Virus record (IMG/VR): IMGVR_UViG_3300035208_003026
Span: 144,981-208,980 of that record
Reading direction: 5' to 3' (one strand)
DNA length: 64,000 nt
Source of the DNA: a virus
Lineage: Duplodnaviria > Caudoviricetes
In this document: positions 10,891 to 61,328 of the stretch, in pieces
How the letters are laid out: every line of letters starts with the position of its first letter
How positions within the stretch are numbered: the stretch's first letter is position 1
Program-made: the position numbers and the translations under genes
Notes under the pieces: model-generated
The model's database searches: none
Told to the model about the DNA's origin: nothing
What the model saw: the letters and a program-made list of their open reading frames with translations, nothing else

Positions 10891-11856
10891 ATGGATATGG
10901 GTAAGAAAAAGAAAGTTATAATCACTGGTAGTGGTGGTTTTATTTTTGGCAATTTCATCAGGCAGGTGTTTTATGCCAAGATACCATATACTATCTCAAG
11001 TATAGATAGGGTTCGTGATTCTCATATTATTCACAATATCTATATAAATCAAGATCATCAATTTTATATAGCTGATGTTAGAGATCCTCATACACTTCGT
11101 GTAATATTTGAGAAAGAACGACCTGATATTGTTATTCATGGAGCTGCTGAAAGCTGTATAGATAATGGTATTGATACTCTTTCATTTACTACTTCAAATG
11201 TTGTAGGTACTCAAAACATTATAGATCAGTGTCTTGCAATTAATGCAAAACTTATTTATATAAGTACTGATAAAGTATACGGATCACTTCCAAATGAGCA
11301 AGCATCTCCTTGGACTGAGGATTTTCCTCTTAATCCAAAAAATATATATTCAGCTACAAAAGCAGCTGGTGAGCTATTGATACAAGCGGCATCTCAGACA
11401 CATAATTTGAAGTTTAACATTGTTCGTGCATCTAATAATTATGGACCATGGCAAACTACCGAAAAACTCATTCCTCGTATTATTGAGAGAGTTTTGACTA
11501 ACAAAGATATTTCAATTTACGGAAAGGGTGATCAGATCCGAGATTGGATTCATGTAAATGATACATGTTCAGCTTTGTTTAAAGTAGTTGATAATGGTAG
11601 TAATGGTGAAACATATAATATAACAGCTAAACAAGAATTCACTAACTTAGAGGTTGCCCAGATTATATGTAATACATTAGGTAAAGGCCATGAGTTGTTG
11701 AAGCATGTTGAAGATAGACCTGGCCATGATTTTAGATATGCGATGAGTAATGAAAAAATCAAAGCTCTTGGTTGGGTACCTGAATATAAGTTTCGCGAAG
11801 GAATTGCGCAAACATGTCAATGGTATGTAAATAATAAGTTTGCTTTGCAACTGTGA
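10891..11856 (+). CDS. rfbB: dTDP-glucose 4,6-dehydratase-like NDP-sugar dehydratase
   Basis: TGSGGFI, HGAAES, STDKVYG, YSATK, SNNYGPWQ, EKLIP, IRDWIHV, DRPGHDFRY. Confidence 0.8.
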   Translation: MDMGKKKKVIITGSGGFIFGNFIRQVFYAKIPYTISSIDRVRDSHIIHNIYINQDHQFYIADVRDPHTLRVIFEKERPDIVIHGAAESCIDNGIDTLSFTTSNVVGTQNIIDQCLAINAKLIYISTDKVYGSLPNEQASPWTEDFPLNPKNIYSATKAAGELLIQAASQTHNLKFNIVRASNNYGPWQTTEKLIPRIIERVLTNKDISIYGKGDQIRDWIHVNDTCSALFKVVDNGSNGETYNITAKQEFTNLEVAQIICNTLGKGHELLKHVEDRPGHDFRYAMSNEKIKALGWVPEYKFREGIAQTCQWYVNNKFALQL

Positions 11857-11872
11857 TATAGATAGGAAAAAT

Positions 11873-13252
11873 ATGGGTACTGAATCTAAAACCGAGGTCT
11901 TGCAAAGAGAGGAAATAGTGAACGACATCAACGATAAGCCACAAGTAGATGAAGAAAAATTGGCCAAACTAAAAGCGCGAGCTGCGCAGAAAAGGGCCGA
12001 AGAAGAAGCAGCGCAAGCTGAACCACAGGAGGAAGTGATGCCACCACGTATTGTAGAAGATCGTAAGAAGAGTCTTCGTTTTGGTGTAATTGGCTCTGGA
12101 CAATGTGGTAGTAGAATTTCTGAACAATTTTATGCTCTTGGATATCCAACGGTAGTTATGAATACAGCTCCACAGGATTTGGAAGATATCAAAGTTCCGG
12201 AACAAAATAAGCTTTTGTTAGATTTTGGTCTAGGTGGTGCTGCTAAAGATCTTAGTATTGGGTATGATGCGGCCGATGCATATCGTGCAGCAATTAACCA
12301 ATTGGTTCAGACCAAACTTAGTGATGCTCAAGTTTTTGTATTCTGTACATCTCTTGGGGGTGGTTCTGGCGCTGGTTCAGTTGAAATTATTGTTGACATT
12401 CTTGCACAGATTGGAAAGCCGGTTGTAGTTCTTACTGTTTTGCCTAAGGCTTCAGAAGATTCTCAGCTTAAACACAATGCTTGGCAGACTCTTCATAAGT
12501 TCACTAAGATGTTTAACGAAGGTAAGATCGACAATATTATTACCGTTGATAATGCCAAGATTGAATCTTTGTATTCAGACGTTGGACCATTCAACTTTTT
12601 CAAAGTCTCTAATAAGGCTATTGTTCAACCTATCGATGTGTTCAATACCATGAGTCGTCGTAAGGACGAAGGTCTCAAGGTTCTAGACTCAACTGAGTTC
12701 GGTAAATTGTTTATCGATGGTAAAGGATTTACTGTATATGGCGAGATGTCAGTTGAGGATTACGAAGATGAGATGGCAATTGCCACCGCTATCGTTGAAT
12801 CTCTTAAGGGCAATTTGTTAGCTTCTGGTTTTGATATTCGCCAGGCCAGATACGCTGGTTTCATGTTAGTAGCTCCAGAGAGTGTTTGGAATAAAATTCC
12901 AAGTTCATCTTTGGATTTTGCACAGCATATGATTAATGATGCGTGTGATTCTCCACTTGCTGTTTTTCATGGTGTTTACCGTGAGGATACTGGTGAGGAT
13001 TGTATCAAGGTATACAGCATGTTCTCTGGTCTTGGTTTGCCTGAGGAGCGTATTGATCAGCTCAAGGCTGAAGCGCAAGCAAAGATGGCAAATGCTCAGC
13101 GCAAGGATGAAGACCGCAAGATGACCATGAAGGTTGATGTTGGCGAAGAGACCATGAACAAGGTTGATGAAATTAAGAAGAAGATTCAACAGAAGGCTTC
13201 TTCATTCAACAAGTTGCATGGTGGAGCTATCAAAGATCGTCGGAAGCTATAA
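11873..13252 (+). CDS. Tubulin/FtsZ-family GTPase (phage tubulin)
   Basis: IGSGQCGSRI, GGAAKD, signature LGGGSGAG, VDN; coiled-coil N and C tails; ATG 11873 after AGGA. Confidence 0.9.
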   Translation: MGTESKTEVLQREEIVNDINDKPQVDEEKLAKLKARAAQKRAEEEAAQAEPQEEVMPPRIVEDRKKSLRFGVIGSGQCGSRISEQFYALGYPTVVMNTAPQDLEDIKVPEQNKLLLDFGLGGAAKDLSIGYDAADAYRAAINQLVQTKLSDAQVFVFCTSLGGGSGAGSVEIIVDILAQIGKPVVVLTVLPKASEDSQLKHNAWQTLHKFTKMFNEGKIDNIITVDNAKIESLYSDVGPFNFFKVSNKAIVQPIDVFNTMSRRKDEGLKVLDSTEFGKLFIDGKGFTVYGEMSVEDYEDEMAIATAIVESLKGNLLASGFDIRQARYAGFMLVAPESVWNKIPSSSLDFAQHMINDACDSPLAVFHGVYREDTGEDCIKVYSMFSGLGLPEERIDQLKAEAQAKMANAQRKDEDRKMTMKVDVGEETMNKVDEIKKKIQQKASSFNKLHGGAIKDRRKL

Positions 13253-20476: not shown

Positions 20477-20737
20477 ATGCCATGTTATGAACATCTGTGT
20501 CAATTTTGCAAACATGAATGGGAAGATACTTACAGTATCCATGCTGAAGTACCAAAAATTTGCCCAGAATGTAAAACTGAAGGACAAGTCAAGAGACTTA
20601 TTTCAGGAGGCGGATCTGTTAAAGTAGAATTGACAGGTAAAGAACTTATACAACAACTCTGGAAAGAGGGAAAGCAAATTGCCAAAGAAGCAAGAAAGAA
20701 TGAAAACCTAGCTGCTAGTTTATATGGACGAAAATAG
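20477..20737 (+). CDS. FmdB-family zinc-ribbon regulator
   Basis: MPCYEHLCQFCKH...CPEC...KRLIS pattern. Confidence 0.85.
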   Translation: MPCYEHLCQFCKHEWEDTYSIHAEVPKICPECKTEGQVKRLISGGGSVKVELTGKELIQQLWKEGKQIAKEARKNENLAASLYGRK

Positions 20738-21404
20738 GAGTATTTTGAATAAGGAAACAAAAGCAGAGAGGATAAGTAATCTTCTAGAGAGATTAGTAAC
20801 GCTTAGACGCAAATGTTTGAAATCAAAAAATGTAAAACTTAGGAAAGAATTTGAACAAGTCCAAGAGTTATGTATAATAGAGTTGGATTATTTGATAAGG
20901 ACACATACAAGAAGATATAAAAGCTTCTCAAATTATGATGATCTTTGTCAGGATGGAAGATTAGCATTGTATTCTGCATTGCAGAATTACGAGCCTGAGA
21001 AGGGTGATTTTTATTGGTGGGCGAATAAGTACATAAAAACCAAGATTAGTCGAGAGGCCAATCGCCACTCCACTATAAAGATACCTATTAAGCATACCAA
21101 ACATGTTACCCCGTATAAAGTTTCTCAGTTGCCTATTATTGTTGATAACAGTTTAAATGCTGTTGAAAATATGGAAAAAGGTGAGTTTGAGATATCTATT
21201 AGATCAGCAGTTAAAAAACTTCCTGATGACCAGCGTAGGGTAATAGAACTACATTACGAAATGAGCGGTGGTAGTTCTCATCATTCTGAATCGCAGAGCA
21301 TTGGTAAAATCTGTGACAAACTAAGTATTACTAGAGTGAATTGTATGAAACTGCTCAATGAAGCAAAAAAGACACTAAGACAAGAGCTGTCTGAAGTTTA
21401 TTGA
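20724..21404 (+). CDS. Sigma-70 family RNA polymerase sigma factor
   Basis: Region 2 DDLCQDGRLALYSALQNYEPEKG-F; region 4 LPDDQRRVIELHY...IGKICDKLSITR. Confidence 0.85.
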   Translation: MDENRSILNKETKAERISNLLERLVTLRRKCLKSKNVKLRKEFEQVQELCIIELDYLIRTHTRRYKSFSNYDDLCQDGRLALYSALQNYEPEKGDFYWWANKYIKTKISREANRHSTIKIPIKHTKHVTPYKVSQLPIIVDNSLNAVENMEKGEFEISIRSAVKKLPDDQRRVIELHYEMSGGSSHHSESQSIGKICDKLSITRVNCMKLLNEAKKTLRQELSEVY

Positions 21405-21415
21405 GGAAATGAAAC

Positions 21416-24400
21416 ATGGCGGATCAAAAGTTTACTTTCAAAGAAGCACACGAGATTGCACTTCAGTATTTTCGCGGAGGAGAAATCTCCGCATCTGTGT
21501 ATCTGAATAAATACGCAATGAAGGACAACGATGCAAACATCGTTGAACCAACTCCAGACTACATGCATAGAAGGCTTGCTGGAGAATTTGCTAGAATAGA
21601 CTCAGAGAAGTATGGTCTAAACTATCAAGAACGATATGATGTTTACTTTTCCGCCATGAAAGACTTCGGCCGTATCGTTCCGCAAGGATCGGTCATGGCT
21701 GCAGTTGGTAATCCATATCAAGTAATGTCTGCGTCTAACTGTGTTGTAGAAGCATCTCCTGAAGATTCTATTTCTGGAATCTTCAGAACTGCTCACAATT
21801 TAGCTCAGTTGTATAAGAGACGTTGTGTTGCAGAGGGATCTAAAGTTGTTACAAAAGAGCATGGACCGATTAATATCGAAAATGTTCTTCCTGGTATGCA
21901 TATTCTATCTTTTGATATTGATGAACAAAAGACGGTTTATAACAAGGTCTTGGACAAATTTGAGTCTAATGTTAATGAAGATGATAGAATTATCGTAAGA
22001 TATTCAAATGGTACAGAGCTAAGAACATCCAAGAAACATCCAATTCTTGAGTTTGGCGAGCAAGGTTTCGGTTACACTGAAGCTGGTAACATTAAAGCAG
22101 GAAGTATCAATGTTCGACCAGAAAATATCAATCTAACTGATTTGAATACTGGAGATTGGGATATTAACGCCACAGACGCACACGATCTTGCATGGTTTGT
22201 TGGTGCTCATATTGGTGATGGGTCTGCTGATTATGTTGTTACTGGTGATGATCGTGGTCGATATGATAGGATTCGTTTTAGAATCTCAGGTGACAATGAA
22301 GAGGTTGTGGAACAGTACAGGAACATTCATAATCATCTGACTACTAATTCAGCAAATTACCATAAGTCATATCGTACAGATTATCAGACGACATGTTGGG
22401 AGTTTTCATCAGCTGTAAAGGCAAATGAGGATATTCTCAATGAGTTGATAGGTAATCAGGTTGGGTCTAAGACGTATTCTGCGTTTGTTCCTAACTCGAT
22501 TGATTCTGACTTTAAAATGTGGTCATTCATAGCTGGTCTTATTGATACAGATGGAACAGTTAAACAAGATGGGCAGCAGATTGTTATTGGCATCTGTGCC
22601 AGGAAGGTGATCGATCAGGTGGCTGTATTTTTACAGTCCAAGGGAATTAGTACACATCTGATTGTTCGTGACGATGTTCGCGATAATGAACATACCATTT
22701 ACCAATTGTGTATTCATTATGATATGAATCTATGGGATGGTTTAGCGAACCGCATGGCTCATGATGAAAAACGAAATGCTCTTCGTGTTTACTTGTATGA
22801 GAATATGACTAAGCAGCATTCGTTGCGAAAGCCAATTAATCAGAGTGAATATGAACACATTCTTAAACATTATGATTGTCTTACAAAAGACTGGAAAAAT
22901 CCTAATCATAAACTTTTAGCAGCGAACATCTATTACATGAAAAAGGCAGATGTTCGTGGAGTTGGTAAAACGTTTTTGAATCAGCTTGTTGATTTTGGAG
23001 TCTTTTCTAAGGATGAGGCTGATTCTATAGTTAGCAGAGTATCTGTAATTGAGGTTGTTCAGGATACCGAGTCAAAAAAGTATTATGACATTGAAGTTGA
23101 GAATACAAACAATTTCTATTGTGGTAATGGTGGGTTGGTTTTAATTCATAACTGCGGTGTTGGTTTTGATCTTTCAAGCCTACGTCCAGAAGGTTCGAGT
23201 GTCAATAATGCCGCTCGTACAACTACTGGTGCCTGGAGTTTTGCAGATTTATATTCTACTGTAACTCGTTTGGTTGGTCAAGCGGGTCGTCGTGGAGCCT
23301 TGATGCTTACAATGGATGTTCATCATCCTGATGTGCTCAAGTTTGCTACAATGAAGCATGACCTAACCAAGGTTACTGGGGCAAATATTTCTTTGCGTTT
23401 GAGTGATGAATTCCTCAAGGCAGTTGATGAGGGTACTGATTATGAGGTTCGTTGGCCTGTTAACGATCCTAATCCAAAGATTCGTAAACGAGTGGATGCT
23501 CGCAAGGTTTGGGAAGTTATTGTAGAGTCTGCTACGAAGAGTGCAGAGCCTGGTCTTATTCTTTGGACTAATGCTGTTCGAACTCTTCCTGCTCATTGCT
23601 ATCCTCAATTCGTTTCTGTTTCTACAAACCCATGTTCCGAGATTATTCTTTCGGCTTCTGATAGCTGCCGATTGATTTCAATGAACTTGACTGCTTATAT
23701 TCGTAATGCTTTTGAAAGAGATGCATTCTTCGACTTTGAAGCATTTAAGAAAGATGCTGCTATCGCAGCTCAAATGGGTGACAATCTTGTTGACCTAGAA
23801 ATTGAGCTGATTGATAGAATCATCAATACCATTAAATCTACAGCAACAACGCTTGAAGATTCAGAGTGGGAAATTGAGATCTGGAAGAAGCTACGTAAAG
23901 CTGGTCATGATGGTCGTCGTACTGGTCTAGGAACTCATGGTCTTGCAGATGCTCTCGCACAGCTTCGGCTTCGATATGATTCGGATGATGCAAATGCAAT
24001 GGTAGATCAAATCTATCGCCACTTCAAGGAATCCATTTATCAAGCTTCTGCTGACTTAGCAAAGATTCGTGGACCATTCCCTGCGTTTGATCCTAAATAT
24101 GAAGTTGGTCATCCTTTCATCTCTGCATTGCCTGAGAGCACTCAGCGAGAAATGATGGAGAGTGGTCGTCGAAATATTTCGATGCTAACTCAAGCACCTA
24201 CTGGTTCGGTGTCAATCATCTCAAAGGTTGGCGAGTTTGATCTATTCAATGTGTCATCTGGTGTTGAGCCTGTCTTCCGCGTTGCTTATACAAGACGTAA
24301 GAAGGTTAATCCAGATGATGAGGGATCGAGAGTAGATTTCAGAGATGCCAACGGGGATTGCTGGCAAGAATATAGAATCTTCTCTGGTAATGCAAAGGCT

Positions 24401-25420
24401 TATCTTGATAAGTTTGGTCTTGATGAGGATACGAAGCTTCCAGAGTTTTTTGTCAGTTCTGATGAGATTAACTGGACAAAGCGTATTCGTATTCAGGCAA
24501 CTGAACAGAGACATATCGATCACTCCATTTCAAGTACCATTAACCTTCCGGCTGGTACGCCTAACTCTGTTGTTGCTGAGTTGTATTTAGAAGCTTGGAA
24601 ACAGGGTTTGAAGGGTGTTACTGTTTATGTTGATGGTTCAAGAGATGGTGTGCTTGTTACTGGAGAAAAGCAAGCCCTGAAGTGTGACAATTATCTGATC
24701 GGACATTACAATCAGGTATTTGATAAGGATGGTTTTGAACTCTGGGATGCTTTTGATCAGAAATTCCAGGAGATTTCTAAGAAGCTCAGGGACATCGCAG
24801 AGGCCAAGAGAAATGCTCAGGCTAACTTCGATTGGAATGCTGCTGAAGCTGTGGAGTTTCCAAAAATGCGAAAGCAAGATGTTTATGATGTTTTTGCACC
24901 AATCTTCAGTGATCCTGAGCGTGCTTACGCTCCTAAACGTCCAGCAGTCTTAGAATCTAAAACTCATAAGATCAGGATTGATTTTGGAAATGGTGAACCA
25001 AGGAATGCTTATGTTACAGTTTCCTTCTTCCCCAACTCCAAGCGACCATACGAGATTCTTGTTCAGGCTCCTAACTTTGGGCTTGGAGAAAAGGATCTTC
25101 AAATCCTGGAGTTGACTGCTCGAACAACATCCATGAATCTAAGACATGGAGTGCCGATTCCATTCATTTGTGAGCAGCTTGATAAGATTGGCGGACAGTA
25201 TCTGTTCTCTCTTCCAACCAATATTGCAAGAGTTCTTCGCCATTATGCTGGTGAAGAGGAGCTTGTGGAAGATGAGGGTGCTGATATTGAAGAGTTTGAC
25301 CGTAAGAATGCGGTATCTCTTGAGAAATGTCCATCATGTGGCCAGCGTACTTATAGAAGAACTGGTGCTGCTTGTGGGCATTGCGAAAATCCGAAGTGTA
25401 CTTATAGTAGTTGCGGATGA
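21416..25420 (+). CDS. nrdJ: Class II (B12-dependent) ribonucleotide reductase with intein and C-terminal TSCPD/Zn region
   Basis: SASNCVV, GRRGALM, TNPCSEI, APTGSVS, GLKGVTVYVDGSR, terminal CPSCG...CGHC...CTYSSCG. Confidence 0.92.
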   Translation: MADQKFTFKEAHEIALQYFRGGEISASVYLNKYAMKDNDANIVEPTPDYMHRRLAGEFARIDSEKYGLNYQERYDVYFSAMKDFGRIVPQGSVMAAVGNPYQVMSASNCVVEASPEDSISGIFRTAHNLAQLYKRRCVAEGSKVVTKEHGPINIENVLPGMHILSFDIDEQKTVYNKVLDKFESNVNEDDRIIVRYSNGTELRTSKKHPILEFGEQGFGYTEAGNIKAGSINVRPENINLTDLNTGDWDINATDAHDLAWFVGAHIGDGSADYVVTGDDRGRYDRIRFRISGDNEEVVEQYRNIHNHLTTNSANYHKSYRTDYQTTCWEFSSAVKANEDILNELIGNQVGSKTYSAFVPNSIDSDFKMWSFIAGLIDTDGTVKQDGQQIVIGICARKVIDQVAVFLQSKGISTHLIVRDDVRDNEHTIYQLCIHYDMNLWDGLANRMAHDEKRNALRVYLYENMTKQHSLRKPINQSEYEHILKHYDCLTKDWKNPNHKLLAANIYYMKKADVRGVGKTFLNQLVDFGVFSKDEADSIVSRVSVIEVVQDTESKKYYDIEVENTNNFYCGNGGLVLIHNCGVGFDLSSLRPEGSSVNNAARTTTGAWSFADLYSTVTRLVGQAGRRGALMLTMDVHHPDVLKFATMKHDLTKVTGANISLRLSDEFLKAVDEGTDYEVRWPVNDPNPKIRKRVDARKVWEVIVESATKSAEPGLILWTNAVRTLPAHCYPQFVSVSTNPCSEIILSASDSCRLISMNLTAYIRNAFERDAFFDFEAFKKDAAIAAQMGDNLVDLEIELIDRIINTIKSTATTLEDSEWEIEIWKKLRKAGHDGRRTGLGTHGLADALAQLRLRYDSDDANAMVDQIYRHFKESIYQASADLAKIRGPFPAFDPKYEVGHPFISALPESTQREMMESGRRNISMLTQAPTGSVSIISKVGEFDLFNVSSGVEPVFRVAYTRRKKVNPDDEGSRVDFRDANGDCWQEYRIFSGNAKAYLDKFGLDEDTKLPEFFVSSDEINWTKRIRIQATEQRHIDHSISSTINLPAGTPNSVVAELYLEAWKQGLKGVTVYVDGSRDGVLVTGEKQALKCDNYLIGHYNQVFDKDGFELWDAFDQKFQEISKKLRDIAEAKRNAQANFDWNAAEAVEFPKMRKQDVYDVFAPIFSDPERAYAPKRPAVLESKTHKIRIDFGNGEPRNAYVTVSFFPNSKRPYEILVQAPNFGLGEKDLQILELTARTTSMNLRHGVPIPFICEQLDKIGGQYLFSLPTNIARVLRHYAGEEELVEDEGADIEEFDRKNAVSLEKCPSCGQRTYRRTGAACGHCENPKCTYSSCG
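21824..23152 (+). mobile_element. Intein (443 aa) with LAGLIDADG endonuclease in nrdJ
   Basis: KRR|CVAEGSKV...SKKH...VGAHIGDG...FIAGLIDTDG...YYDIEVENTNNFY...LIHN|CGVG. Confidence 0.95.
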
Positions 25421-25794
25421 TTGAACGTTCTGTTTATCTAGATAGAGAAGATTGCAAGCTCATCGAAGAGGAAGAGCGGAATCTTTTCGTGCGGGGCATC
25501 CTGGAAGCAATGGGTGTTCCGCTCGAAGAGGCTTGGCCGGATATATCTCTTTCGGTCGAGCAGAAAATCAAACTTAGAGGTCTTCTTGGTAAATTGGAGA
25601 TGGAAATTATCGATGATGGAGATAGAGGATATACTATCTATCATCAAAATACAAAACTTGCAGAATGGTTTAAACCAAGATTTATCTTACGAGAAGATAA
25701 AGGGGCGAGAATTCTTAACAAGAAACTTTACTATGAGATGGTCATAAAAACTTGGAGTGTTTTTGACCAACAGGAGAATAATACTAATGACTAG
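25417..25794 (+). CDS. Hypothetical protein
   Basis: ATGA overlap with nrdJ stop. Confidence 0.65.
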   Translation: MIERSVYLDREDCKLIEEEERNLFVRGILEAMGVPLEEAWPDISLSVEQKIKLRGLLGKLEMEIIDDGDRGYTIYHQNTKLAEWFKPRFILREDKGARILNKKLYYEMVIKTWSVFDQQENNTND

Positions 25795-26128
25795 AGTAAC
25801 CGAAATTAGCAAAGAACAGTTGGCACCTATCGTTACGGCTCGCACCAAGACCATTGAATTGGCCCAGGCTGCTGAGCAGGCAATCAAGGATGCGCGTATG
25901 GCCGAGTTGGAGTTTAAGGTTCAGATTCAACAGCTTTACCTTGAGAAGGGTTTGGATTCCAATTGTCGAGTTGACATCAATACCGGTGCTGTAACTTGGC
26001 CAGATGTTGCTATTCAGGCAGTTGCCGTTGCTGTAGAAGAAGATGTCAAGTCAGAGGAAGTAAAACCACGTAAGAAGGCAAAGAAAAAGGACACGGTTGT
26101 AGTTGATGAAGATGAGACAACTGTCTAA
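25787..26128 (+). CDS. Hypothetical protein
   Basis: AGGAG RBS; charged C-terminal tail. Confidence 0.65.
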   Translation: MTRVTEISKEQLAPIVTARTKTIELAQAAEQAIKDARMAELEFKVQIQQLYLEKGLDSNCRVDINTGAVTWPDVAIQAVAVAVEEDVKSEEVKPRKKAKKKDTVVVDEDETTV

Positions 26129-26137
26129 GGATAAGTA

Positions 26138-26890
26138 ATGAAAATAACAGACCTTGCAGCATTAGTGCAAGTCCGCAACCATGTTTTGACAGTCATTAAC
26201 GATAAATCTGTTACCAACAGAGATGATTTCAAGCCTCTTAATGAGGCAAGGATGAAGTTGGATAAGAAGTTTGTTGAGATTGTTAAAACACTAGATGTGG
26301 ATTCGATTTTTCCTAACGAACTTCTTCTTGTGAAGGTTAGTGGAAATCCAACATCTAAAGAACTTGAAACTTGGAGAGATCTTTTCGAAGCGTCTCGTAA
26401 CGATCCTGATTTCAAGATCTTTACAAACGATGGTGTTTCTATTGTTCAACTTTCTATTGATCCAAAGTCTGAAGTAAGAGTTTGTCCAGCAATTGAGCCT
26501 AGAAGCATTGAGGTTTCCCCCAATATTTCAATTGCTAAGAAAGTACAGCTTAATCTTCCTTTTCAAACCCATGAAAAACCAGCTGATCCAACATTAAGCA
26601 TTGCAGCTGATGTTTTGACAGAGGTTGCTAATGGTGAAATTAAGAAGCTTGAAGCAAATTTAGCTAAGCTTAAAGAGCAGAACGTTACAATTGCTCCCGC
26701 GGTATTGGCAGAGGCTGCAAAACCGATTCAGGCTCCTGAAGAGGAAAAGTTGGCGGTTGTTGAGAAAGTTAGAAAGACAAAACTAACAGAAGCATCGCAA
26801 GATCCTGATATTGCAGCAGCTATTGCTCGTCAAAAGGAAGAGTTGAAGATTCAGGGTCGTTCGAATAAGAAAGTTAAGAAGGATGATTAA
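26138..26890 (+). CDS. Hypothetical protein containing a portal-protein-like segment (aa ~61-105)
   Basis: LLLVKVSGNPTSKELETWRDLFEASRNDPDFKIFTNDGVSI resembles a huge-phage portal clip region (recalled, not searched); low-complexity C-terminus. Confidence 0.65.
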   Translation: MKITDLAALVQVRNHVLTVINDKSVTNRDDFKPLNEARMKLDKKFVEIVKTLDVDSIFPNELLLVKVSGNPTSKELETWRDLFEASRNDPDFKIFTNDGVSIVQLSIDPKSEVRVCPAIEPRSIEVSPNISIAKKVQLNLPFQTHEKPADPTLSIAADVLTEVANGEIKKLEANLAKLKEQNVTIAPAVLAEAAKPIQAPEEEKLAVVEKVRKTKLTEASQDPDIAAAIARQKEELKIQGRSNKKVKKDD

Positions 26891-27686
26891 TAAAGGTGAG
26901 CTTATTCCGTTAAAGGATAAGCTCTGGTTAACTAAACAAAAACACGCCGGTCGTGTCGTTGCGAAATCCCATCAAGAGATTTTTGGGATGATCAAGGGCA
27001 TGGCCAGTGGCCTTTCTCTTAAGGTATTAGGAGATGTTGTAGAAGAAATCATTCGAAAGAATGATTGTATACCAACGTTTCTTAACTATCAAGGGTTTCC
27101 AAGTCCTATTTGTGCATCTTTGAATAATGAAATTGTTCATGGGTTTGCTCGTGACATTAAATTGCAAGATGGAGATGTTCTAAAGGTTGATATTGGTGCA
27201 ACTTTTGAAGGTGCAATTGCGGATTGTGCATTTACTTATGTTTTTGGTAAGTTGAAGAATCCAGAGATTGGGAGAATGCTTGTTTCATGTCAGCAAGCTC
27301 TGTATGATGCTATAGATGTTGTAAAGCCCGGAAAACAAATAGGCGTAATCGGAAAAGCTATTTGGGAAAGATCAAAAACTGATGGCTTTGGTGTAATTAC
27401 TACCTATGGTGGACATGGTATTAGTTATAATAAGCTACATGATTCACCATTTATCTCTAATAAATCAAGTGAGAATCTAGGAATTACAATTCAGCCAGGA
27501 ATGTCATTTGCAATAGAACCAATGTTTGTACTTGGTACCAATACTAATACCAAAACTCTAAAGGATAAATGGACAGTGATTACTAAAGATATAGGATGTC
27601 ATTATGAACACTCTATTACCCTTGATGATGATGGAAACTTACATATCATTACAGATCATGGTCTAAGTGCAAAGAATTTTCTGTAA
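26883..27686 (+). CDS. map: Methionine aminopeptidase type I
   Basis: FLNYQGFP, VHG, VDIG, DCAFT, GHGI, IEPM, HYEH metal ligands. Confidence 0.95.
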   Translation: MINKGELIPLKDKLWLTKQKHAGRVVAKSHQEIFGMIKGMASGLSLKVLGDVVEEIIRKNDCIPTFLNYQGFPSPICASLNNEIVHGFARDIKLQDGDVLKVDIGATFEGAIADCAFTYVFGKLKNPEIGRMLVSCQQALYDAIDVVKPGKQIGVIGKAIWERSKTDGFGVITTYGGHGISYNKLHDSPFISNKSSENLGITIQPGMSFAIEPMFVLGTNTNTKTLKDKWTVITKDIGCHYEHSITLDDDGNLHIITDHGLSAKNFL

Positions 27687-27704
27687 AGAAATAAGGGGTC
27701 GAGG

Positions 27705-27962
27705 ATGAAAATCGTTTTCGATGATGGTGGGTACATTGAGTTTCAGCGATCTAAGAAAGCACATCATGTTTTTGTGATGATTGCTGCAAAAGATTCAACT
27801 AACCCATTGAAACTATTAGTAAATTCTGCTGAGATTCAACTTAGTCAATTGATAGAGGCCGTAAAATCAGTATCAGGCCCGTTAATGTTAGAAGGAAAGA
27901 CCAATGACCAAAACAATCAAGACAGCCAAGACATCACTCCAGACAATTCAGAACATTCATAG
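27705..27962 (+). CDS. Hypothetical protein
   Basis: 85 aa ORF with RBS-like GAGG. Confidence 0.55.
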   Translation: MKIVFDDGGYIEFQRSKKAHHVFVMIAAKDSTNPLKLLVNSAEIQLSQLIEAVKSVSGPLMLEGKTNDQNNQDSQDITPDNSEHS

Positions 27963-28230
27963 CCGTAAGCTGACGAATAATACCCAAAGGGTAGGTCTGC
28001 GGTTGTTAACCGCAGCCGGAGAGTGGATTCCCCGTTCTCAGCTTGCCAGGATTCCATCTGCCACTGCTCGTGTTCGGGATCTTCGCAAGGAGCAGTTTGG
28101 GTCATTACAGGTTGAATGTAGAAGTTCTGATGACTTAAAAAAGAAGACTTCCAAGAGGACGTTTTATTATCGAATCAACGCAAGCCGAGTTACCAAAAAG
28201 CAGTTAGACAAGCTATTTCCAACAGTATAA
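27904..28230 (+). CDS. Putative winged-helix DNA-binding protein
   Basis: Basic; GEWIPRSQL...SATARVRDLRK...YYRI pattern. Confidence 0.55.
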   Translation: MTKTIKTAKTSLQTIQNIHSRKLTNNTQRVGLRLLTAAGEWIPRSQLARIPSATARVRDLRKEQFGSLQVECRSSDDLKKKTSKRTFYYRINASRVTKKQLDKLFPTV

Positions 28231-28254
28231 TACGTAACTAGATTCTAAAAGCAT

Positions 28255-28290
28255 AAGAGCCCCAGAAGATTTTTCCTTCTGGGGCTTTTT
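28255..28290 (+). terminator. Intrinsic terminator
   Basis: Stem AGCCCCAGAAG / CTTCTGGGGCT followed by a T-run. Confidence 0.85.
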
Positions 28291-34733: not shown

Positions 34734-35122
34734 TGGTAAAAGCAAACTCTGGAAATACAACATCTAACTCATATAGTTCTGGTCATGATAATTACGACAA
34801 ATATAAAGATCATGATCAATTTGTATATGACGAGAATAGTTCTGGAAAGTCTTTTATAAAGCAAGATTCGGAACTGTATAATGAAGAAGAAGCTGCAATT
34901 CCAGGATCATCTGTTCGTGTAAAGTGTACTAATACTGATTGGAAGATTTACATAAACGGAGTTGAAGTCTTAGTTTTGAAGGAATCTAGATTCACGGCAA
35001 AGGAACGTGATTGGCTTCAAACTACTCAAGGTTTCTTATTTTTGCTTAATGGGGCTAAGCAGGGTTGGAATTCCGTCTCTGAATTCAAGAGACAAATCAA
35101 AGACAGACCAGAGGTTCAATGA
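34730..35122 (+). CDS. Hypothetical protein
   Basis: AAGGAG RBS, ATGA overlap. Confidence 0.6.
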   Translation: MMVKANSGNTTSNSYSSGHDNYDKYKDHDQFVYDENSSGKSFIKQDSELYNEEEAAIPGSSVRVKCTNTDWKIYINGVEVLVLKESRFTAKERDWLQTTQGFLFLLNGAKQGWNSVSEFKRQIKDRPEVQ

Positions 35123-35307
35123 TTATTTTCCACAGCACAAAAAGAATACAAGATCAAGCGTTTATGATTTTTACAAACGAAGATGGTGCTATGATTCAGA
35201 TTCCGGTAGATGATAAAACCCAATCCGTGTTTTTACATCATTTTGATCGTCTATCTCATGGAATGAAACCGGTCGAGGATGACTCTAGGGAAGCCTCACA
35301 TAAGTGA
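35119..35307 (+). CDS. Hypothetical protein
   Basis: GAGG RBS, ATGA overlap. Confidence 0.55.
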   Translation: MIIFHSTKRIQDQAFMIFTNEDGAMIQIPVDDKTQSVFLHHFDRLSHGMKPVEDDSREASHK

Positions 35308-59334: not shown

Positions 59335-59436
59335 ATGAGAGATTATCAAAGCATTGCAAGGCGTTTGTTTCAGATTGATTCCTTGCCATCTGGGGCTGAA
59401 CCGGTTTACTGCACCGAGATAGATGTAAATGTATGA
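59335..59436 (+). CDS. 33-aa peptide resembling a major-capsid N-proximal segment
   Basis: MRDYQSIARRLFQIDSLPSGAEPVYCTEIDVNV*; GAGG upstream; ATGA overlap with next gene; absent from ORF track. Confidence 0.6.
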   Translation: MRDYQSIARRLFQIDSLPSGAEPVYCTEIDVNV

Positions 59437-61328
59437 AGACAATTCTTGTTACTGGAGCTGCTGGTTTTATCGGCTCTCATCTTTGTGATCGGTTGTTGTT
59501 TGAGGGACACAAAGTCATTGGTATTGATAATATGATGACTGGGTCTCTTGAAAACCTTCAGCAAGCTAAAAAGAATCCGAACTTCCATTTTGAGATTCAT
59601 GATGTTCGTGAACCTCTTAATGTATACTCGGATGTTATCTTCAACCTTGCTTGTCCAGCATCACCAATACACTACCAGAAGAGTCCTATTGATACGTTCA
59701 CAACATCAGTGATGGGTGTACATCAACTGATTAAGGCTACACAAAATCGCAAGTGTACAATCATACATACATCTACATCTGAGGTGTATGGTGATCCTCA
59801 AGTCCATCCTCAAGTTGAAAGCTATTGGGGTAATGTAAACCCAATAGGTCCAAGGTCTTGTTATGATTCTAAAACGGAAATCTTAACAGATGTTGGTTGG
59901 GTGTATCTAAAAGATATAATCACCACAAAGCAATGTAAAATTGCTACAAGAACATCAATTGGTAATGTTGAATTTCATAATCCGTTAGAAATAATTCATG
60001 ACAGATATGTTGGTAGCATGTATCATCTTAGTAATAATAAGATGGATGTTATGATAACTCCAAATCATAATATTTGCATTGCTGATAGGTTTGGTAAAAA
60101 TGAAAAGATTGTTGCTGTTAATTCTGTAACAGATTGGTATCACTCAAAAATTCCAGTATCAGCTAATTTTGAATCTGATGATGTTGAATATTTCAAATTA
60201 CCATCAATTGATGGGTGTAGGGTTACACATTCTGATTTAAAAATGGATGACTGGATTGAATTTCTTGGATGGTATTTATCTGAGGGATCTGTATATTATC
60301 CAGATTACACTGTTTTGATATCTCAAACAAAAAAGGATAATCGCGAGATTATATCTTCTTGTTTGAAACGATTAGGATTTAAGTTCTTTGTTGAAAAAGC
60401 ACAGTTTAGAATATGTAATAAGCAACTTTATAGTTTTCTTTTACCTCTAGGAAAATCTGGAGACAAGTATATTCCAAGACAGTTTTTTACCGTATCAAAA
60501 AGACAATTAAACATACTTCTAAAGGCAATGGTTTTAGGAGATGGTACCAATAATACAAAAAGTACAGGATTTCGTTATTATTCAAAATCAGAACGTCTTG
60601 CAAATGATTTTCAGGAATTAGCTTTACGTTGTGGTTTTGCTAGTACAAAATCAAAACCAAGCCAAGGTCGTAGTGTTTACAGTGTTAATGTAAGGAACTA
60701 TAAATATACATCTGGTATTAGACCAAATGTAATTAATTATGATGGTTATGTTCACTGTGTCAATGTTCCTAACCATGTTGTTTGTGTTAGGAGAAATGGA
60801 AAGTCAATTTGGTGCGGTAATTGCTACGACGAAGGAAAACGTGGCGCAGAGACTCTTCTAAATGATGCTCGCCGAGTTCACGGAATGGACACCCGAATAG
60901 TTAGATTGTTTAACGTATACGGACCGAGGATGTCTTTCGATGATGGTAGGGTTGTATCTAACTTTATCATTCAAAAGCTCAGAAACGAACCCATAACAGT
61001 TTGTGGAACAGGCACTCAGACAAGATCTTTCTGTTACGTATCTGATCTTATCGATGCTTTGATGAAGGTTTTGGAACTACCATCTTTGGATGGTCCTATT
61101 AATCTTGGGAACCCTAAAGAGTACACAATCTTGGAAATGGTTCAAAAACTAGAACAAGTTCTTGGTAAATCTGAGTTGAAGTTTATTGATCTTCCAATAG
61201 ATGATCCTAAAATGCGTCAGCCAGATATCTCCAGAGCACGAGAGCTTCTAAATTGGGAACCTACAGTTTCATTGGAAGATGGTTTATTAATGACTGCCCA
61301 TGATTTCCAAAACCGTCTTAGGAGCTAA
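59433..61328 (+). CDS. UDP-glucuronate decarboxylase (UDP-xylose synthase) with intein
   Basis: GAAGFIGSHL, LACPASP, STSEVYGDP, YWGNVNPIGPRS|CYDEGKR, DGRVVSNF, TRSFCYV, DDPKMRQPDI. Confidence 0.93.
   Translation: MKTILVTGAAGFIGSHLCDRLLFEGHKVIGIDNMMTGSLENLQQAKKNPNFHFEIHDVREPLNVYSDVIFNLACPASPIHYQKSPIDTFTTSVMGVHQLIKATQNRKCTIIHTSTSEVYGDPQVHPQVESYWGNVNPIGPRSCYDSKTEILTDVGWVYLKDIITTKQCKIATRTSIGNVEFHNPLEIIHDRYVGSMYHLSNNKMDVMITPNHNICIADRFGKNEKIVAVNSVTDWYHSKIPVSANFESDDVEYFKLPSIDGCRVTHSDLKMDDWIEFLGWYLSEGSVYYPDYTVLISQTKKDNREIISSCLKRLGFKFFVEKAQFRICNKQLYSFLLPLGKSGDKYIPRQFFTVSKRQLNILLKAMVLGDGTNNTKSTGFRYYSKSERLANDFQELALRCGFASTKSKPSQGRSVYSVNVRNYKYTSGIRPNVINYDGYVHCVNVPNHVVCVRRNGKSIWCGNCYDEGKRGAETLLNDARRVHGMDTRIVRLFNVYGPRMSFDDGRVVSNFIIQKLRNEPITVCGTGTQTRSFCYVSDLIDALMKVLELPSLDGPINLGNPKEYTILEMVQKLEQVLGKSELKFIDLPIDDPKMRQPDISRARELLNWEPTVSLEDGLLMTAHDFQNRLRS
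59859..60821 (+). mobile_element. Intein (321 aa) with LAGLIDADG endonuclease in the UXS gene
   Basis: PRS|CYDSKTEILT..TPNH..LGWYLSEG..MVLGDG..VRRNGKSIWCGN|CYDEG. Confidence 0.93.

Follow-up and report, generated by a model that had tools for sequence, protein, structure and literature searches.

Pairwise and profile comparisons show that residues 57-115 of P0001, a 250-residue gene product of an uncultured huge phage, are a paralogous duplicate of a segment at the predicted clip position in the portal protein of the same phage. By the same comparisons, the copied module retains nearly all residues that are invariant in this portal lineage. It stands in a modular protein together with a helical hairpin, a putative sliding-clamp-binding peptide and a basic tail. 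We tentatively propose that P0001 is a clamp-tethered adaptor, which would show the portal clip and hold a clip ligand on replicating DNA.

Anatomy of P0001 and selection on its gene

P0001 is a member of a conserved huge-phage family, and its gene is located at positions 26138..26890 (+) of the window, the whole 64,000-nucleotide stretch that was analysed. The N-terminal helical hairpin (aa 1-56, 26138..26305, +) shows the strongest conservation and is the defining element of the family. The portal-clip-like module follows (aa 57-115, 26306..26482, +), with a predicted beta-alpha-beta-beta fold. A disordered stretch (pLDDT <50) then contains QLNLPF, a hexapeptide of the beta-sliding-clamp-binding type (aa 137-142, 26546..26563, +), and the protein ends in a conserved basic C-terminal helix and tail (aa 218-250, ...QKEELK.QGRSNKKVKK, 26789..26887, +).

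The structure model, obtained with AF2 on a 20-sequence alignment, has a mean pLDDT of 59, which is moderate only. It contains a helical hairpin at residues 3-51, a strand at 61-67, a helix at 73-85, strands at 100-107 and 113-116, a low-confidence region at 115-200 (pLDDT <50) and C-terminal helices. A previous sequence-only reading of this DNA had quoted a 45-residue segment as strand-helix-strand, with a helical N-terminus before it and a low-complexity tail after it. This description fits the model, and the quoted segment matches the translation exactly (aa 61-105, 26318-26452, +).

Homologues of P0001 number 41, with identities of 35-97%. The whole protein has no match in Pfam, PHROGs, phage GenBank (tblastn) or the protein atlas, and a megablast search with the region was also empty. 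Foldseek and VIA searches with the P0001 model, a weak one at pLDDT 59, returned generic helical-hairpin matches only and no significant fold. One source names the homologue P0020 as GroES/Cpn10. A Pfam search of P0001 with E values up to 1 gave no Cpn10 match, and the co-chaperonin name looks spurious.

The P0001 gene is under purifying selection. Comparison with a 79%-identical homologue gives a dN/dS of 0.16 for the whole gene, with values of 0.05 in the hairpin, 0.28 in the clip and 0.09 in the tail. We note that dS in the clip module is 0.27, versus 0.7-1.0 in the flanks (window 26306-26467 compared with L020:3001-3756). Judging from this alignment, the low dS could come from local recombination or from an RNA/DNA constraint.

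Homology to the phage's own portal

The source of the window is a 208,980-bp IMG/VR record with 1,705 ORFs and an estimated completeness of 49%. One ORF in the record matches phrog_16240. It encodes 1,407 residues at genome positions 52280-56503 (L005:7280-11500), outside the window. Its translation contains two insertions of 393 and 384 residues (aa 338-730 and 770-1153), and since each starts with Cys, ends with Gly-Asn and contains a LAGLIDADG domain, the insertions are two inteins. The second intein splits the clip motif itself, between FEE and CQYDKDFKIF: the left extein ends ...LTLVKIGNQDFRPTPIDLEHWRNVFEE, and the right extein begins CQYDKDFKIFTHDAISVERV. In the unspliced portal, each half of the P0001 segment matches a separate extein piece. 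Splicing by script in silico yielded a portal of 630 residues, and intein-free orthologues of ~630 residues are common. Relatives of this portal family include the portals of Bacillus phage G and Tunturiibacter phage Tunturi_5. The large terminase gene (genome 48244-52269, 1,341 aa) lies immediately upstream of the portal gene and is likewise swollen by intein/endonuclease-like inserts.

The sequence-only reading had pointed to a likeness between the P0001 segment and the clip region of huge-phage portals, and had proposed a comparison with portals including that of this phage. Both BLASTP and profile methods uphold the likeness, identifying the segment as a homologue of the clip-position motif of the phage's own phage-G-type portal. 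With BLASTP, residues 348-393 of the spliced portal align with aa 60-102 of P0001 at 51% identity over 47 columns (E 2e-10). A search of the record's 1,705 ORFs with an HMM of the module found only P0001 (E 5e-25) and the spliced portal (E 7e-24), and the same HMM detects the motif in 119 of 120 related portals. An hhalign comparison of 20 modules (A3) with 20 intein-free portals (A2) gave a probability of 99.6% and an E value of 1e-24 at portal columns 339-401. As judged from these alignments, the likeness is far beyond chance.

The homology is limited to this segment. Matches of the portal HMM (A2) to family members are confined to positions 325-380. In P0001, the portal HMM aligns only at its positions 328-375, with aa 60-104, out of a full-length profile of ~600 aa. 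In an exhaustive phmmer search, aa 55-110 of P0001 independently matched proteins of 80-150 aa, and these proteins in turn match phrog_16240, annotated 'portal protein', at ~290-345 of 643 (E 1e-5 to 1e-3). A check for recent gene conversion of P0001 by the portal gave no clear signal, with identical codons at 15 of 22 identical residues and a nucleotide identity of 61%.

Position of the motif within the portal

Solved portals have the order stem helix, clip, stem helix, tunnel loop and wing helix. We modelled the intein-free portal orthologue P0131. The model is poor overall (pLDDT 50, and <50 in the motif region), and it matches more than 100 solved portals with a Foldseek probability of 1.00, which indicates that the portal identity is genuine. 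In the model, the motif (345-400) is located between helices 321-337 and 406-420, and a loop and a long helix (441-470) come next. The predicted helix order around the motif is that of solved portals, and this predicted topology supports a putative assignment of the motif to the clip position.

Among 177,635 solved sequences, the module profile found only residues 244-291 of the HFTV1 portal (8QQN), at a non-significant E value of 0.43. A phmmer search of solved structures with the intein-bearing portal gave no match, and the portal profile gave non-significant rows only.

Gene family and spread of the clip module

Relatives of P0001 were sorted with HMMs of the three conserved parts, which gave four groups. 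Hairpin, clip and basic tail are combined in 34 proteins, P0001 included, and ~56 proteins have hairpin and tail without the clip. The hairpin is thus common to ~90 cluster representatives, with or without clip, and the cterm HMM matches nearly all full-length family members. Small module proteins form ~40 clusters and contain either a single module or, typically, a full module preceded by half of one (strand and helix). The module is also found at aa 667-718, near the C-terminal third, of P0107, a metagenomic protein of 976 aa, which shows that it is a portable domain. By eye, P0107 seems to contain MORN/YwqK-like repeats and long coiled coils.

The small proteins were also considered as fragments of split portals. 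This is ruled out by their own starts and stops, by the half-plus-full tandem arrangement and by the lack of portal parts nearby. They are located among small accessory genes.

Some members sorted as clip-less, P0036 and P0037 among them, keep recognisable decayed clip remnants, which suggests that the clip was lost repeatedly rather than gained many times. Since relatives have lost the clip or let it decay, the clip appears to be an accessory add-on to the family, and its absence or decay in many members indicates that it is not required for the core function. In a tree of the modules, all portals fall on one side of a branch with an SH-aLRT of 79, and the tree is too short to separate a single capture from several.

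In IMG/VR, the motif was found at 240 loci, and the best 80 of these comprise 76 portals, 3 family members and 1 stand-alone tandem protein. The 202-kb contig that encodes the stand-alone tandem protein also encodes a portal. A scan of IMG/VR with one small clip protein gave no match, and 50,697 sequenced phage records contained no match to the hairpin family or to the small clip proteins. No stand-alone clip was found in two partial genomes with a clip-less family member, and no family member was found in the assembled half of one genome with a stand-alone clip (records 47-78% complete). Our literature search found no description of clip-only proteins. As defined by these profile searches, the portal-clip modules outside portals are a new and widespread domain family. 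Within the window, a 62-aa ORF (35119-35307, +) faintly resembles the module's second half (..AFMIFTNEDGAMIQI..), at a non-significant E value of 0.15.

The P0001 copy could be a functionless relic: a portal fragment may have entered the gene's variable middle region by way of the intein and homing-endonuclease traffic, which is rife in this genome, and may now be drifting. This origin would fit the two LAGLIDADG inteins of the own portal, one of them within the motif, as well as the capsid-gene fragments that are also dispersed in the window, the decayed remnants in P0036 and P0037 and the variability of the family's middle region. We consider a relic improbable, because 34 family proteins, some with as little as 35% overall identity, have the module at a constant position and retain its portal-invariant residues, the clip has a dN/dS of 0.28, an independent small-protein family and the 976-aa fusion exist, and no endonuclease gene adjoins the P0001 gene.

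Another explanation starts from the way clips are built. Neighbouring subunits of solved portals form sheets with the beta-strands of their clips. P0001 might accordingly modulate portal assembly, its clip pairing edge-to-edge with the clip strands of unassembled protomers. We regard this as unlikely, and equally so the effects that it would have, namely that ring formation is delayed or nucleated, or that portals and procapsids are tethered to replicating DNA. The half-plus-full small proteins could complete a clip sheet within one chain, and the module is closest to the phage's own portal lineage, both of which speak for such pairing. A strand-capping copy would poison the closed 12-mer, however, and many relatives manage without the clip.

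Other virion-gene pieces in the window

In a 172-aa ORF (window 48698-49216, +), the 44-aa stretch at aa 28-71 shares 54.5% identity with major capsid protein residues 195-238 (E 3e-13 within the ORFs of the genome). The major capsid gene itself is located at genome positions 79149-79934 (phrog_2522, E 2e-65). An earlier remark on a 'capsid fragment' in this DNA is thus real at the sequence level. A 33-aa ORF (window 59335-59436, +) shares 59% identity (E 1e-6) with residues 5-33 of this capsid protein and abuts the start of an intein-bearing gene of 631 aa (59433-61328). A free-standing LAGLIDADG endonuclease gene is found at genome positions 78138-79055, just upstream of the capsid gene. Separately, a 470-aa ORF (window 11840-13252, +) has a weak match to PhuZ tubulin (phrog_4733, E 2e-6) and a stronger one to phrog_17961, a function-unassigned family (E 3e-13). 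The result for P0001 means that pieces of virion genes really are dispersed through the non-structural part of the genome.

Operon context

The P0001 gene belongs to an operon region at 20724..28286 (+), which extends from a sigma70-like gene to a hairpin with a 12-bp stem. The sigma70-like gene (20724-21404, +) is followed by an intein-bearing class II-type RNR gene, nrdJ (21416-25420, +), with Ribonuc_red_lgC, TSCPD and intein matches. Two small ORFs (25411-25794 and 25757-26128, +) separate the RNR gene from the P0001 gene, and map, encoding an M24 methionine aminopeptidase (26883-27686, +), comes after it. The placement of the gene between nrdJ and map in the sequence-only reading agrees with this order, with the two small ORFs intervening after the RNR gene. 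The start of map overlaps the stop of the P0001 gene, which suggests translational coupling. Downstream of map are ORFs of 85 and 108 aa (+), and then the strong hairpin at which this run of tightly packed genes ends (28258-28286); it has a perfect 12-bp stem with 7 G-C pairs and is located after the operon's last small gene and before a fibre-like gene of 1,631 aa. From its sequence and position, the hairpin is likely a bidirectional terminator.

The order DnaB, Zn-ribbon protein, sigma70-like protein, RNR with intein, two small ORFs, P0001-family gene and map is conserved. It is kept in relatives that are only 35-41% identical, and also in one clip-less relative. The description of the gene as a non-structural ORF fits this setting, a conserved operon of replication and nucleotide metabolism.

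A conserved clamp-binding-type motif

Peptides that bind the bacterial beta clamp include those of the QL[SD]LF or QLxLxL type. In the P0001 family, the disordered stretch after the clip has the consensus Q-L-[SNTP]-L-P-[FL], represented by QLNLPF at aa 137-142 of P0001. The pattern Q-L-x-L-P-[F/L] occurs in 54 of 90 family proteins (27 of 34 with the clip and 27 of 56 without), and shuffled family sequences contain it 1.1 times on average and 5 times at maximum. It is absent from all 120 portals, and the stand-alone clip proteins do not have the clamp motif. QLNLPF itself is a peptide of this general type in a disordered segment (pLDDT <50) and is conserved in relatives. Several family members have exactly QLSLPL, a strong clamp-binding hexapeptide in work on E. 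coli (PMC3664792).

We predicted the complex of P0001 aa 105-175 with E. coli DnaN, which served as a stand-in for the host clamp. The model scored 0.64, compared with 0.02 for the best control, and passed a mark that 58 of 80 solved complexes and 2 of 110 mismatched pairs also reach; peptide-clamp complexes have already been solved in number, so the pass may reflect likeness only. At least 71% of the contacts are common to the runs, with a partner pLDDT of at least 40. The predicted contacts involve only aa 134-143 of P0001, together with beta residues 172, 174-177, 242-247, 320, 344, 346, 360 and 362-366, which we take to be the canonical peptide pocket of the clamp, a hydrophobic site between domains II and III. 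A clamp gene was not found in the 209-kb record, which is 49% complete. The motif conservation and the complex model indicate that aa 137-142 of P0001 are probably a conserved peptide of the beta-sliding-clamp-binding type.

In a subclade consisting of P0028, P0032, P0034, P0039, P0044 and L115, QLxLP[F/L] is replaced or weakened. The subclade with P0028/L115 carries a conserved acidic-aromatic sequence, DG[IVF]WEDAD..PDHPDD, which, going by its pattern, may be another short docking peptide.

Proposed function

In our proposal, P0001 would be a modular adaptor, with the hairpin, the clip copy, the clamp-type peptide in a disordered linker and the basic tail as its parts. Bound to loaded clamps on the replicating phage DNA, it would display the portal-clip surface there. 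The displayed surface would capture a partner that the clip naturally engages; the large terminase is the most plausible one, with a portal protomer or neck protein as alternatives. The terminase is favoured because it has business on replicating concatemers. Capture of the ligand would couple packaging to replication.

The clip of the T4 portal is the docking site of five gp17 terminase subunits, and later of gp13 / neck proteins (PMC9958956). T4 gp17 binds the late sigma factor gp55, and gp55 binds the gp45 clamp, a chain that was proposed to couple packaging with replication-dependent late transcription (PMC9026906). The late activator of phage Mu, C, is a further precedent, being described as using the host beta clamp (PMC12867686).

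A free copy of the clip could also act against immunity. As an anti-defence decoy, it would soak up or block a portal sensor (Avs4, Avs11 or RAZR-type), or compete with the packaging machinery of a rival phage. We judge this quite unlikely for P0001. Portal-sensing immunity is known, the module retains the portal-invariant residues, and its patchy accessory distribution, with loss and decay among close relatives, is usual in arms-race genes. Stand-alone and tandem clip proteins are moreover found in small-gene arrays beside ADP-ribosyl glycohydrolase and NADAR genes, and for these proteins, which have an accessory setting and no clamp motif, a decoy or regulator fits at least as well. The P0001 copy, on the other hand, belongs to a replication-type operon that is conserved, and it is joined to a motif of the clamp-binding type, which would be superfluous for a soluble decoy. 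In addition, according to one description (10.64898/2026.01.04.697583), Avs sensors recognise whole folds across extended interfaces, so that a piece of 50 aa would compete poorly and might set off the sensor instead. The predicted clamp-type motif and the operon context thus point more to a DNA tether than to a free decoy. The suggestion of the sequence-only reading that the segment is a portal mimic remains plausible as a putative function of the P0001 clip.

The clamp-tethered adaptor, if true, would connect replication with genome packaging in huge phages in a concrete molecular way that can be tested; in T4, this link rests mainly on interaction data. The ligand of the small-protein clip modules (~40 clusters) should then equal the ligand of the clip. 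These modules could be natural probes or inhibitors of terminase-portal docking, and they may be counter-defence candidates against portal-sensing immunity.

On a wider scale, we raise, with some doubt, the possibility that huge phages of the phage-G portal lineage reuse the surface of the portal on which terminase and neck proteins dock as a portable module that places or withholds the packaging motor. Free tandem mini-proteins, fusions to large proteins and the sliding-clamp adaptor would then form a previously unknown layer of control, an idea that we offer as speculation. It might conceivably serve the loading of terminase on replicating DNA, or its blocking in rivals or at the wrong time.

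Comparison with known systems

Phage decoys against host immunity are similar to the clip module in being small, patchy, accessory copies of a conserved viral pattern, and the stand-alone versions of the clip likewise occur among accessory genes. We found no portal-fragment decoy in the literature that we searched.

P0001 resembles portal proteins (phrog_16240; examples are T4 gp20 and HFTV1 8QQN) in its clear homology to the clip-position motif of the lineage, with the same predicted beta-alpha-beta arrangement and the invariant VK.G, PT, DLE.WR..FE.A and D.DFKIFT. It differs from them in having only ~55 portal residues. P0001 has no wing, stem or crown and so cannot form a portal, and its clip is embedded in an unrelated protein that is encoded outside the head module.

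The hexapeptide of P0001 has the same pattern as that of beta-clamp partners with Hda-type QLSLPL, and it is likewise disordered and predicted to bind in the canonical pocket. To our knowledge, no known clamp partner bears a portal piece. The P0001 gene adjoins a sigma-like gene and replication genes, a point in common with clamp users such as T4 gp55/gp33-gp45 and Mu C, and T4 offers the precedent for a link of clamp, sigma factor and terminase. Unlike gp55, gp33 and Mu C, to which it is unrelated in sequence, P0001 has its motif at an internal rather than a terminal position. P0001 would be new among clamp-binding adaptors.
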